In this document: positions 10,320 through 50,128 of the stretch, piece by piece
Numbering within the stretch: the stretch's first letter is position 1
Layout of the letters: the number at the start of each line of letters is the position of its first letter
NCBI GenBank assembly: GCA_965659815.1
Contig: CBFHXO010000006.1
Span: 1-56,954 of the forward strand
Direction: 5' to 3'
DNA: 56,954 bases
From: Pseudomonadales bacterium
GTDB taxonomy: Bacteria; Pseudomonadota; Gammaproteobacteria; Pseudomonadales; UBA7434
Notes under the pieces: generated by a model
What the model saw: the letters and a program-made list of their open reading frames with translations, nothing else
Told to the model about the DNA's origin: nothing
Databases searched by the model: none
Position numbers and translations under genes: made by a program

Positions 10320-10934
10320 ATGTTTATAGTTGGGCTTACCGGTGGCATCGGCAGCGGAAAATCAGCAGCAGCAGCGATATTTTCCGACCTGGGTGTAACC
10401 GTGGTCAATGCCGATATTGTCGCGCGTGAAATTGTCGAGCCTGGCTCCGATGCCCTCGCTCAAATCGCCAACCATTTTGGTCAGGATATCTTACTACCGG
10501 ATGGTGGCCTTAACCGCGCCCTGTTGCGTCATAAAGTATTTGCAGACCCAAGCGAGCGGGCCTGGCTGGAGCAACTCACCCACCCTTTAATTGGTATGCG
10601 CATTGCCGAGCAGCTGGACGGTGACCCGCTCGAGGGCGAGCCGCCGTACCGAATTCTCGAATCGCCGCTACTTCTTGAAACAGCACAACGCGAGCTTACC
10701 CAACGAATTTTACTTATTGACGTCAGTGAACAAGTGCAAATTGAAAGAACCATGCAACGGGACAATAATAATGCTGAGCAGGTTAAGGCAATTATCGCCG
10801 CCCAATTGCCCCGCGATAAAAAGCTTAAACTGGCCGACGATATTATCGAAAATAACGGCACGCTGAATGAATTGCAACAAGCGGTTGAACAACAACATAA
10901 ACACTACCTGGCCCTAGTGCAGCGGAGTATATGA
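10320..10934 (+). CDS. coaE: Dephospho-CoA kinase
   Basis: IVGLTGGIGSGKS P-loop, HPLI, PLLLE, ADDIIENNG. Confidence 0.97.
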   Translation: MFIVGLTGGIGSGKSAAAAIFSDLGVTVVNADIVAREIVEPGSDALAQIANHFGQDILLPDGGLNRALLRHKVFADPSERAWLEQLTHPLIGMRIAEQLDGDPLEGEPPYRILESPLLLETAQRELTQRILLIDVSEQVQIERTMQRDNNNAEQVKAIIAAQLPRDKKLKLADDIIENNGTLNELQQAVEQQHKHYLALVQRSI

Positions 10935-11155
10935 TGCAGCAAAAAGTCATTGGTAAAGTAACACAAAAAGCAACACGCGTTGATTGTCCAGCCTGCCAAA
11001 CAATCATTGAGTGGAGTGAGCAATATCCCGACCGTCCGTTTTGCTCCAAGCGTTGCAAAGACCGCGACTTTATCGATTGGGCAAATGAAGAACAACGCAT
11101 TGCTGGCAGCGGCAGCTATGACGATATATTTAGTGATAGCGATATCAACCCGTAG
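10931..11155 (+). CDS. yacG: DNA gyrase inhibitor YacG
   Basis: CPAC-x15-RPFCSKRC Zn finger, D..DWA.E..RI; overlaps the coaE stop. Confidence 0.93.
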   Translation: MMQQKVIGKVTQKATRVDCPACQTIIEWSEQYPDRPFCSKRCKDRDFIDWANEEQRIAGSGSYDDIFSDSDINP

Positions 11156-11316
11156 TAAATGTCTGCCAGTCTAAATTGCAAAAAGACAACCACCTCCCTT
11201 TCTCTTGCTATCTGTTTACTAAGCATTAACTGTGTATTAACTATATAGTATTAACCTAGCGTTAAAAAAGCAGGGAGCACAGAAATCCTATTTTTTAAAA
11301 ATGTTGCCCACACCTC

Positions 11317-11345
11317 TTTACTGTTTATTTATACAGGCATATACT
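11317..11345 (+). promoter_or_regulatory. Sigma70 promoter with a LexA (SOS) box in the spacer
   Basis: CTG-TTTATTTATA-CAG at 11321-11336 (CTG-N10-CAG, preceded by TA). -35 TTTACT at 11317-11322, 17-bp spacer, -10 TATACT at 11340-11345. Confidence 0.85.
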
Positions 11346-11493
11346 TTTACCGATGGTATTTCTCAGGACGCCACTTTTGCAGCAAATACTTGTCGCGCAT
11401 AAGCACCCTCAACTGTCGCGTTAAGTACTGCTATAAATACGCTTGCCGTAAATACCGCCACCCACTTTACTTTACGAAAATCAGGAATTCGTT

Positions 11494-11994
11494 ATGACTA
11501 CGCTCGCATTAAAACCTCAAGCCGAAACAGTAAACCCTGAAAGTGACACCGTTAATACTGCTTGTTTTTATAATACAAATAGGCTCTCTATAAATCGCCT
11601 TTATTCAGATAGTCTTTACCCAAACAGCCTCTACCGAGACAATGCAAGCAACAGCCTAGTCAGCACTGCCAAGGCTGGCTCAGACTATCGCTACCCGGTA
11701 TTGCAACCCAACATCAATCGTTACCGCGTTGCCGAGCCCGACCGGCCCTACCAAGACTTTCAACAACTTAAGTTTACCGCAGTAACCACCGTAGCCCGCG
11801 AACATGCCAAACATATATCAGCCAGTGTTAAACAAAGTAGCAGTAAACCCTGCTTGCAATTAAGCGGTAATTGGTTAGAAAAGGCCGGATTTATTGAGGA
11901 TGCACGCTGCCTGGTTGAAGTGTATAAGGGAATGCTGTTACACTGGATGAATAACCGGATAAGCGATACTGAATATACCACGCTGGGCGAGTAA
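11494..11994 (+). CDS. symE: SymE-family (AbrB-fold) type I toxin-like protein with a long N-terminal extension
   Basis: C-terminal KPCLQLSGNWLEKAGF...CLVEVYKGMLL fits the SymE pattern P.L.L.G.WLE.AGF....V.V..G.L. AGGA RBS 7 nt before ATG; LexA box upstream as for E. coli symE. Confidence 0.8.
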   Translation: MTTLALKPQAETVNPESDTVNTACFYNTNRLSINRLYSDSLYPNSLYRDNASNSLVSTAKAGSDYRYPVLQPNINRYRVAEPDRPYQDFQQLKFTAVTTVAREHAKHISASVKQSSSKPCLQLSGNWLEKAGFIEDARCLVEVYKGMLLHWMNNRISDTEYTTLGE

Positions 11995-12016
11995 CGCCCG
12001 CTAGAGCTTTTATCTA

Positions 12017-12421
12017 TTACGCATTTGCGGTATCAGTTTTTTGTTCAAGCCATTGAACAATGGTTTTGTTCGCTTTGGGAAATTGATGTGCGCTCAGCTC
12101 ATTGATGGACAGCCATTTAATGACCTGCCCTTCTCTACCGATGGGCGTACCCGAAAATGCATTGACAGCCCAGACATCAAGCAGCACTTTTTTATCGCCA
12201 TAATCGTGCGGAATTTGCATGACTGGGCTCGCTGCACTTATATGAATATCAAGCTCTTCGCGTAACTCACGCGCCAGTGCAATATCAACAGACTCGTGCG
12301 TCTCAACTTTGCCGCCAGGAAACTCCCAAAGCCCACCTTGATGGGCATCATCGGCGCGCTTGGCAACCAGCACTTTGCCGTTCGAATGAAATACCAAACC
12401 CACAGCAACATGAACCATCAT
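12017..12421 (-). CDS. mutT: 8-oxo-dGTP diphosphatase (Nudix), stand-alone form
   Basis: VHVAVG...HQGGLWEFPGGKVE..E....ALARELREEL Nudix box, FPKAN; follows argJ. Start placed at ATG 12421. Confidence 0.93.
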   Translation of the reverse strand: MMVHVAVGLVFHSNGKVLVAKRADDAHQGGLWEFPGGKVETHESVDIALARELREELDIHISAASPVMQIPHDYGDKKVLLDVWAVNAFSGTPIGREGQVIKWLSINELSAHQFPKANKTIVQWLEQKTDTANA

Positions 12422-12449
12422 TTGACCCACTGACTTCACAATGGTGCGA

Positions 12450-13724
12450 CTAACTACGGTAGTCGGCATTAATTCTTACATAGTCCAGCGATAAATCACT
12501 GGTCCAAACCCGCTGCTGATGATCACCACGATTCAGTTTTATCGTCACGCTGATATCGCCTTGCCCCATAATCTCCATCGCACGCGACTCTTGGTAGCCT
12601 ACAGCAACACCACCGTGCTCACAGATCAGCAGTTCATCCAAATATATTTCAACACGTTCAACATCCAAATCGCTTACATCGGCGCGACCAATCGCGGCAA
12701 GAATTCTGCCCCAGTTGGCATCACTGGCAAAAAACGCGGTCTTAACCAGCGGTGACTCCGCAACCGTATAGGCAACGCTTAGACACTCTTCATCATTACT
12801 ACCACCAACAACATCAATGGTGATAAATTTGCTCGCCCCTTCGGCGTCGCGAATAATAGCAGTTGCAAGCTCAGCCAATAAGTCGTTTAAAGCCAATTGA
12901 AAGCTGGCCCAGTTTTGATTTTCCAAACCATCAGTAGCAGACGATACTGACACCCCCGACTGTCCGGTCGCCGCTAGCACACAGGCATCATTGGTAGACG
13001 TATCACCGTCGACAGTAATGCGATTAAACGACTGATTCACTGCCACCGCCAGCAAAGCGTCGAGATCGGCCTGGCTTACATCGGCATCGGTTGCAATATA
13101 GGCCAGCATGGTCGCCATATTGGGTCGAATCATGCCTGCACCCTTGCAAATACCACTTAGCGTAACGCGTTGCCCATTCAGTGTCAGTGTACGCGAAGCA
13201 GTCTTGGCAACCGTGTCTGTTGTCATAATTGCCTGCGCTGCAACACCCCAGTTATTGGCATCAAGACTGTCACACAATGTCGATGCCGACTGGGCTATTT
13301 TTTCGGCGGGAAGTAACTCGCCAATCACACCAGTAGAAAAAGGCAATACCTGATCGGCCGCCAAAGAAAGCGCGGTGGCAATCGCCCGGCAGCTTTGCAA
13401 AGCGGCGTCATGCCCCGCCAGACCGGTACCGGCGTTAGCATTGCCAGAGTTGATCAGGCAGATAACCTTATTGTCAGAGTTTGATTGAGCAATCGTCTGC
13501 AGGCGCTCGCGCGCAATTTTTACCGGTGCAGCAGAAAAGGCATTGCGGGTAAATACCGCCGATACAGTGCTGTTTTCTGCTAACTCCATTAACGCCAGAT
13601 CATAAAGCGGCGCTTTCGTATCGGCACCGGCAAACGCCGATTGTTTTATACCTGCATACGCCACACCCCAGCGCACCCCGGCAACGGCTTGCACTGGATT
13701 GATCGGCTGGGGCTTAGTCATCAA
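12450..13724 (-). CDS. argJ: Bifunctional glutamate N-acetyltransferase / amino-acid acetyltransferase
   Basis: NSGNANAGTG, STGVIG, IMTTDT, KGAGMI.PNMATML, DGDTSTND, NWGRI, INADYRS. Confidence 0.97.
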   Translation of the reverse strand: MMTKPQPINPVQAVAGVRWGVAYAGIKQSAFAGADTKAPLYDLALMELAENSTVSAVFTRNAFSAAPVKIARERLQTIAQSNSDNKVICLINSGNANAGTGLAGHDAALQSCRAIATALSLAADQVLPFSTGVIGELLPAEKIAQSASTLCDSLDANNWGVAAQAIMTTDTVAKTASRTLTLNGQRVTLSGICKGAGMIRPNMATMLAYIATDADVSQADLDALLAVAVNQSFNRITVDGDTSTNDACVLAATGQSGVSVSSATDGLENQNWASFQLALNDLLAELATAIIRDAEGASKFITIDVVGGSNDEECLSVAYTVAESPLVKTAFFASDANWGRILAAIGRADVSDLDVERVEIYLDELLICEHGGVAVGYQESRAMEIMGQGDISVTIKLNRGDHQQRVWTSDLSLDYVRINADYRS

Positions 13725-49446: not shown

Positions 49447-50128
49447 GTTGATCGCAAAGCTATTATTGCTTGCACTTGTATTGCTTGGACTTGGGGCAGG
49501 CCCAGCTTTGGCACTGAATGGTGATAGCGAAAACACCGCGAATAACGGAGACAACCGTTCGGCCAATGCAAACGCATTTCGCGCACCCATCAGTATTGCC
49601 GCCGATAGCGCTGAGCAAAATGAAAAAAAGGGAGTGACCATTTATCGGGGTAATGTCGCGATTGAGCAAGGCACGCTGACCATTAACGCCGACACGGTCA
49701 CCATTGAGACCGTCGATATAGAAAACCGGAGTAACGTTGATAATGCAAACTCTGTATCGACTGACAGTGTGTCACGCACAGTAACAACCATTGTCGCCAG
49801 CGGCTTACCCGCACGCTTCAGCCAAATATCTGAAGGGCAAATCACAACAATTAATGCCAAAGGCAATACCATTCGCTACGCTGTTGACTCCGGCATTATC
49901 CAACTCGAAGAAAATGCCTCGATAGACAAGCTCGGCTCTAAAGTTTCGGGTGAAAAAATCGAGTACTTTATTAACGAAGAGCTGGTCAAAGCCCAGGCTG
50001 ACCCCAACGATAAAAACACCCGCGTGCACACGGTGATTATTCCCGGTTCGAACGCAAGCTTCCAAACCCAGGTGGCCTCCCCAACAGCGCCAGCAGCACA
50101 AACGGATACTGACACCCCTACCCAATGA
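49430..50128 (+). CDS. lptA: LPS transport periplasmic protein LptA
   Basis: Signal peptide, PISI.AD, Y.GNV.I.QG...I.AD, A.G.PA.F.Q, G..I.Y, RV..VI.P. Start uncertain. Confidence 0.92.

Follow-up and report, generated by a model that had tools for sequence, protein, structure and literature searches.

A SymE-family gene with a predicted LexA operator and no detectable SymR homolog at a housekeeping site in a marine genus of Pseudomonadales

Introduction

The cellular role of SymE is unsettled. The protein was first regarded as a toxin that promotes RNA decay and later as a DNA-compacting protein, and nearly all of the literature that we found concerns a single Escherichia coli locus. As described by Kawano, Aravind and Storz (2007; PMC1891008), E. 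coli symE (yjiW) is repressed by LexA and silenced by the 77-nt RNA SymR (RyjC), whose promoter lies inside symE, and the SymE protein is degraded by Lon. The same paper places the SymE family in gamma- and betaproteobacteria, often beside mobile elements, and mentions a subset of family genes with no regulator gene beside them. According to a 2024 review (PMC11894785), Thompson et al. (2022) report that SymE binds DNA without sequence specificity and compacts the nucleoid, with no RNase activity found. The review itself describes, from AlphaFold models of E. coli SymE, a disordered N-terminal tail, a MazE-like domain and two C-terminal helices. In the openly available literature, we found no account of SymE homologs with a LexA box beyond the enteric bacteria; such genes may yet be listed in subscription journals or in Fig. 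S2 of the supplement to PMC1891008.

A SymE-like gene that stands alone between two housekeeping genes, with a LexA-like box ahead of it, raises two questions: is it under SOS control, and does it form one half of a toxin–antitoxin pair? We addressed these for a gene in a 56,954-nt stretch of DNA (the window) from a 3.09-Mb Pseudomonadales assembly. The explanation that best accounts for the data, to which we assign a probability of roughly 0.65, is a SymE-family (AbrB-type) gene, present in one chromosomal copy and directly repressed by LexA, whose product carries a long disordered tail and no C-terminal helices, and which has no SymR.

A gene alone between yacG and mutT

The left neighbour is yacG (10931..11155, plus strand; gyrase-inhibitor family, PF03884, E = 6.3e-18), and the right neighbour is a MutT-like NUDIX gene on the minus strand (12017..12469; PF14815, E = 1.2e-22), convergent with both yacG and the SymE-like gene. 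The yacG–mutT spacer of 861 nt contains a single ORF, read in the window as 166 aa (11494..11994, plus strand). Within the 340-nt spacer upstream of it there is no other ORF longer than 36 aa, small ORFs of 20–36 aa being unsupported; no direct or inverted repeats of the kind left by mobile elements flank the gene in the window, and its neighbourhood contains no partner toxin gene. These results, together with the synteny across the genus reported below, bear out the initial annotation, which had described a gene alone in housekeeping surroundings with neither an antitoxin ORF nor a mobile-element scar. The same annotation had drawn attention to the neighbours as a gyrase inhibitor and a nucleotide-pool sanitiser. 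Their identities hold, but what they do is probably incidental to the SymE-like gene, which sits between convergent 3′ ends; in nine genomes of the genus, yacG directly adjoins mutT.

The natural allele encodes 154 residues

The 166-aa ORF follows the natural frame only to codon 148. Aligned with six syntenic orthologs, the window DNA lacks 4 nt (TGGT) after ATGC at 11935 (junction 11935..11936, plus strand); the last 18 codons are out of frame, and the last β-strand is replaced by 20 unrelated residues. TGGT is present behind 11935 in contigs of at least 99% identity from four of four metagenome runs (Logan contigs, each run belonging to a different study and none being marked as a candidate source of the assembly), as it is in a further metagenome contig (L050). 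Once these 4 nt are counted, the gene extends over 11494..11954 (plus strand) and encodes 154 aa, with its stop codon TAA at 11952–11954 in the old frame and an end that reads ...GMLVVTLDE-stop. In the protein collection, 154-aa forms (six variants) occur on 39 contigs and the 166-aa form on one, the window's own. The Pfam model SymE_toxin (PF08845; cut-off 29) scores the window's ORF at 26.7 bits, with the final profile positions unmatched, and the intact 154-aa allele at 33.1 bits. The ORF that had been noted as ending in a SymE pattern is thus real as an ORF, but its end is frameshifted, and the 166-aa protein deposited with the assembly results from this frameshift. Its stop codon sits in the loop of a 5-bp G+C stem between the convergent gene ends (11985–11999; GGGCG, loop AGTAA, CGCCC), which fits the C-terminal extension being non-coding 3′ sequence.

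The deletion may have arisen in assembly, or it may be a private variant that probably inactivates the gene. If it is real, the gene could be a decaying pseudogene in the source organism, its last strand destroyed and the cell relieved of a harmful protein. The context of the deletion, GC[TGGT]TGTT, is not a homopolymer and is not typical of a sequencing error; the frameshifted ORF falls under the Pfam cut-off; and the gene is dispensable, because nine genomes of the genus lack it at the yacG–mutT site. Against decay stand the 39 contigs to one and the four intact runs; the remainder of the gene, its promoter and its box carry no further lesions, and an assembly error is equally possible. We consider a pseudogene unlikely, though a serious candidate, and describe below the intact gene, which we take as the natural form.

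A SymE domain behind a variable tail

Among relatives of the protein, 9 of 9 exceed the SymE_toxin cut-off (29.9–68.9 bits), so that the HMM search proposed in the initial annotation is positive for the intact allele and for every relative and negative only for the window's frameshifted ORF. The latter matches no other Pfam family at E ≤ 1 and groups with SymE_toxin rather than with the MazE or AbrB models. Profile–profile comparison (hhalign) with the SymR-linked SymE proteins of the same order gave 99.2% (E = 9.4e-20, 68 columns), a value that is somewhat inflated by one sequence common to both alignments. Seven positions (L123, G125, W127, L128, A131, F133 and V143) are invariant in 20 sequences, and the G, W, L, G and F positions of the G-x-W-L-x-x-A-G-F core are also invariant in the SymR-linked set. 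By these sequence comparisons, the protein belongs to the SymE family. The subfamily around it is small, with 16 representatives at E ≤ 0.001 and six at E ≤ 1e-10 among 1.84 billion.

The hhalign match, the invariant positions and the substitution rates delimit a SymE (AbrB-type) domain at residues 88–154 of the natural protein (11755..11951, plus strand), preceded by an N-terminal tail of residues 1–87 (11494..11754, plus strand) that varies in length and sequence among relatives. In rough pairwise estimates, dN/dS is 0.085–0.65 for the domain (median about 0.17; 10 of 21 pairs with unsaturated dS) and 0.19–1.4 for the tail (median about 0.54; 12 pairs). The tail ends in a conserved E-P-x-x-P-Y motif, part of the longer E-P-x-x-P-Y-x-x-F-Q-Q-L-K motif ahead of the domain. 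Structure prediction gave low confidence and no secondary structure for residues 1–90 (mean pLDDT 43–66 per 10-residue block), and the tail is probably disordered.

The domain modelled alone as a monomer reached pLDDT 76, with the order strand–helix–helix–hairpin. Structural matches to this model are weak, the best having Z = 3.2, and include swapped-hairpin DNA binders: the AbrB N-terminal domain 1yfb_A (Z = 2.7, rmsd 3.2, 42 residues) and SpoVT 2w1t_B (Z = 2.2). Beyond this weak likeness, the protein differs from the MazE/AbrB/SpoVT group in having no sequence match to any solved chain and no partner toxin gene: a profile search of PDB sequences returned 0 matches at E ≤ 10, and Foldseek with the full-length model found nothing in the PDB at E ≤ 0.001.

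The window gene resembles E. coli symE in its PF08845 domain, in the G-x-W-L-x-x-A-G-F core, in having a LexA operator at its promoter (predicted in silico here; described for E. coli in PMC1891008) and in standing alone without a protein antitoxin. It differs in several respects. The NCBIfam equivalog model of E. coli SymE (PRK13605) scores it at 17 bits against a cut-off of 132, and for this reason the function of the E. coli protein is not simply transferable. Its N-terminal tail has about 85 residues, compared with about 20 in E. coli SymE. The final residue of the natural protein, 154, lies three positions beyond the last strand, and the C-terminal two-helix extension is absent; because these helices have been proposed for the E. 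coli SymE tetramer, DNA bridging may not apply here. Finally, no SymR homolog accompanies the gene, which occupies a fixed, vertically inherited position between housekeeping genes.

Family membership leaves room for a reading in which the product, rather than being a toxin, is an AbrB-type transcription factor induced in the SOS response, or an antitoxin-like DNA-binding protein with other genes under its control. According to PMC1891008, the AbrB superfamily, to which SymE has been linked, consists mostly of transcription factors and antitoxins; E. coli SymE is itself reported to bind DNA (PMC11894785, citing Thompson 2022); and no antitoxin was found at the window locus. However, that DNA binding is reported to lack sequence specificity, the sequence groups with SymE_toxin without any other Pfam match at E ≤ 1, and there is no partner toxin gene close by. 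We regard a regulator of this kind as quite improbable.

A conserved predicted LexA operator

A consensus scan places a sigma70-like promoter upstream of the SymE-like gene (11317..11345, plus strand; −35 TTTACT, 17-nt spacer, −10 TATACT; 9/12 matches). The predicted LexA operator, a 20-mer at 11319..11338 with its core CTGT-N8-ACAG at 11321–11336, overlaps the −35 hexamer and the spacer. If transcription begins near 11352, as the −10 hexamer would imply, the putative 5′ leader comprises about 142 nt (11352..11493, plus strand); it has no stable fold (z = +1.17), and AGGA at 11483–11486 lies 7 nt before the ATG at 11494. The near-consensus box, the promoter that holds it and the leader of about 140 nt had all been proposed in the initial annotation, and each was recovered.

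The operator agrees at 16 of 20 positions with the gammaproteobacterial LexA consensus 20-mer, and by this measure it ties with the recA box for second place among the 917 CTG-N10-CAG sites of the 3.09-Mb genome. The narrower pattern CTGT-N8-ACAG has 30 sites in the assembly, eight of them with an A/T-rich spacer. The sole better-scoring box (18/20) lies ahead of an operon with an ImuB-like (IMS family) gene. The genome also encodes lexA (LexA_DNA_bind, 100.1 bits; a 202-aa gene on contig C72), and the upstream region of lexA itself carries a CTG-N10-CAG box.

As a side observation on the 18/20 box, it is followed (contig C90, about 140–2815; locus L118) by a 312-aa ORF without a Pfam match and then by one of 525 aa that weakly matches IMS (impB/mucB/samB); judged by this arrangement, the operon looks like an SOS mutagenesis operon of the imuA-imuB type.

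Conservation of the box upstream of orthologs had been set beforehand as a test on which the assignment could fail; it did not. Among ten loci (L001–L010), nine have a perfect CTGT-N8-ACAG 11–157 nt upstream of the start codon, the tenth being a short SymR-type SymE gene. The distance is 54–157 nt in eight of the nine, and 157 nt in the window. In an upstream alignment of the nine subfamily loci, 11 of 12 invariant columns fall inside the box, which forms the only invariant block, with the remainder barely alignable. The box is likewise identical in the contigs of the four metagenome runs. Among the 24 sequencing runs listed for the stretch, none is of RNA.

Could the box be a chance palindrome in an AT-rich spacer, the gene lying outside SOS control? 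Taken alone, the window would allow this, since it contains two CTGT-N8-ACAG sites (the second, at 49752, within an ORF) where shuffled sequences average 0.62 and 14 of 100 reach two. A coincidence would, however, have to place the box within the best three of the 917 candidates and keep it in all nine subfamily loci, including two elsewhere on the chromosome, while the flanks diverged beyond alignment, and we consider it very improbable. The best reading of the sequence is that the SymE-like gene is under direct LexA repression.

SymR accompanies other SymE genes of the order

If the gene is under LexA control, it might also be controlled by an antisense RNA, as in E. coli. SymR-bearing symE genes found elsewhere in the order form a natural comparison set. 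In a profile search, 16 of 201 genomes of the order had SymE-family genes. The Rfam symR model (RF01809) matches the opposite strand across the start codon at four loci, L102 (55 bits, E = 1.1e-8), L098, L101 and L096, with scores of 47–55 bits that are all below the cut-off of 61. With RF01809 or with R1, a model built from six same-order SymR sequences, SymR-like antisense elements were located at L102:1383–1455 (−), L098:1750–1821 (+), L101:143–214 (−), L096:1759–1831 (+), L100:1765–1837 (+), L094:1414–1488 (−), L093:1720–1792 (+) and L107:1729–1800 (+). The element is 72–77 nt long, nearly invariant and placed across the start codon of SymE genes of 74–97 aa. The matches suggest that the range of SymR is much wider than the E. 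coli and Salmonella loci from which it was described.

Some of these genes also share the operator. A CTGT-N8-ACAG-like box stands 155–160 nt before the start in 5 of 25 loci outside the genus: L098, L102 and L096 (degenerate) with SymR, and L104 and L106 without a SymR match. The leaders of these five loci are nearly invariant, and SymR-type leaders of the order are 87% identical across families. The three SymR-linked genes with a box thus resemble the window gene in box position (157 nt in the window), as the SymR-linked set does in its homologous domain (hhalign 99.2%, as above). The SymR-linked proteins are, by contrast, shorter than the 154-aa protein of the window, their genes keep the antisense RNA, and they occur in multiple copies in several genomes, whereas the window gene is single-copy.

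No SymR homolog at the window locus

Rfam found no SymR in the window from 11100 to 12100 at E ≤ 10, nor in nine related loci at E ≤ 1. The remaining Rfam matches within the window, to snoRNA and HBV epsilon models (E = 0.71–6.4), were set aside as noise. R1, run with filters off on the 5′ ends of the window locus and nine relatives, also found no SymR; as a positive control, it recovered four further SymR copies elsewhere in the order (39.8–73.7 bits). Since Rfam and R1 found SymR at other SymE genes of the order, a SymR homolog at the window locus would have been seen. In addition, the promoter scan showed no minus-strand promoter (at least 8/12) or terminator near the 5′ end of the gene.

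The initial annotation had spoken of a SymE module, either with an unannotated antisense RNA over the leader or domesticated without one. With no SymR homolog and no convincing minus-strand promoter over the 5′ end, domestication without SymR is favoured over the antisense branch, and the notion of a module with its antitoxin is not supported. A version of the antisense branch that escapes the homology searches would be a true type I toxin–antitoxin pair, in which a minus-strand antisense RNA unrelated to SymR lies over the leader or the 5′ part of the coding sequence and prevents translation for as long as LexA repression holds. The E. coli precedent (PMC1891008) and the box-to-start distance of 54–157 nt in eight of nine loci would suit such an RNA, as would a weak minus-strand promoter-like site (TTCAAA, 17 nt, GATAGT or GATAAT; 8–9/12) whose end lies 30 nt before the start in L002, L003 and L005. 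These three loci are close kin, however, so that conservation of the weak site means little, and the window gene has no counterpart of at least 8/12. Furthermore, neither the sequence nor the length of the leader is conserved in the genus, in contrast to the 87% identity of SymR-type leaders across families, and no SymR homolog was found even though the positive controls worked. We therefore think a type I pair unlikely and retain LexA repression without SymR as the preferred reading.

Among LexA-operated genes with growth-inhibiting products, E. coli tisB/istR-1 and hokE (PMC1891008) offer a further likeness to the window gene as proposed here. Those loci encode small membrane peptides and each is paired with an sRNA, whereas the window encodes a soluble AbrB-type protein for which no RNA partner was found.

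Distribution and history of the gene

A search of 40 related genomes, 20 from the genus and 20 from elsewhere in the order, found the protein in eight of the former and one of the latter. Of the 21 genomes of the genus, the window's own included, 20 gave a yacG match. Seven of the 20 yacG loci carry the gene and its box between yacG and mutT; nine are empty, with yacG directly beside mutT and no box, and four are rearranged. In a coaE+yacG tree of 18 of the 20 rows (L022 and L032 were dropped, only yacG having been recovered), all seven occupied sites fall in one half (SH-aLRT 97), along with five empty sites. The tree is compatible with a single origin. The gene appears to have entered the yacG–mutT spacer in an ancestor of one half of this marine genus and to have been inherited vertically thereafter with some losses.

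Two genomes with an empty yacG–mutT site carry a boxed copy elsewhere (L008 and L009). The relocated copy at L008 (1339–2360, genome G012) is again convergent with a NUDIX gene (206 aa; PF00293, E = 2.4e-10). This neighbour is no mutT ortholog, only the Nudix box being alignable, and the arrangement may be a coincidence. At L009, a 327-aa neighbour of the relocated copy was considered as a transposase and dropped, as it has no Pfam match.

A wider genome scan with the single protein returned 16 distant SymE-family loci, three of them proteobacterial; CTG-N10-CAG occurred within 400 nt upstream of none of the 16.

A probably LexA-operated branch of the SymE family without SymR

The subfamily is a SymR-less, probably LexA-operated branch of a known family and not a new kind of system. 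Because it keeps the operator, has no detectable SymR, occupies a stable housekeeping site and is under purifying selection, SOS control rather than the antisense RNA seems to be the conserved part of the system.

We propose the following sequence of events. In an undamaged cell, a LexA dimer would occupy the operator over the −35 hexamer and spacer and block transcription. DNA damage would lead to self-cleavage of LexA and thereby to transcription of the SymE-like gene. In the predicted product of 154 aa, a tail of some 85 residues, variable and probably disordered, is followed by a SymE domain of some 65, which by homology would dimerise and bind nucleic acid. By analogy with E. coli SymE, the protein might then coat and compact DNA or, in the older model, promote RNA decay, and growth would be slowed during repair. 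Since SymR and the C-terminal helices are both missing, protein dosage would be governed by the strong operator and perhaps by proteolysis of the tail.

A more speculative extension, which we put forward tentatively and hold to be rather doubtful, is that proteins of the SymE family can act as ordinary SOS effectors under vertical inheritance instead of as selfish toxins. SymR would have been lost here, a strong LexA operator and a fast-evolving disordered tail would have taken over its role, the conserved motif ahead of the domain would be a possible degron or partner-docking site, and damage-induced coating of the nucleoid would be ancestral. The subfamily offers a simpler model for what a SymE-family protein does after DNA damage.

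Other features of the spacer

Two further features of the yacG–mutT spacer were noted. The first is a 35-codon, TTG-started leader ORF (11390–11497) whose TGA shares bases with the start codon of the SymE-like gene (ATGA); no ribosome-binding site is visible for this ORF, which is probably due to chance. The second is a set of three direct ATTAAC repeats at 11225–11255, 65–95 nt upstream of the LexA box, with start-to-start spacings of 11 and 14 nt. The repeats are absent from the corresponding spacer in five relatives, and they account for the only ATTAAC pairs of this kind in the window (2 matches against an expected 0.10; 0 of 100 shuffles reached 2).
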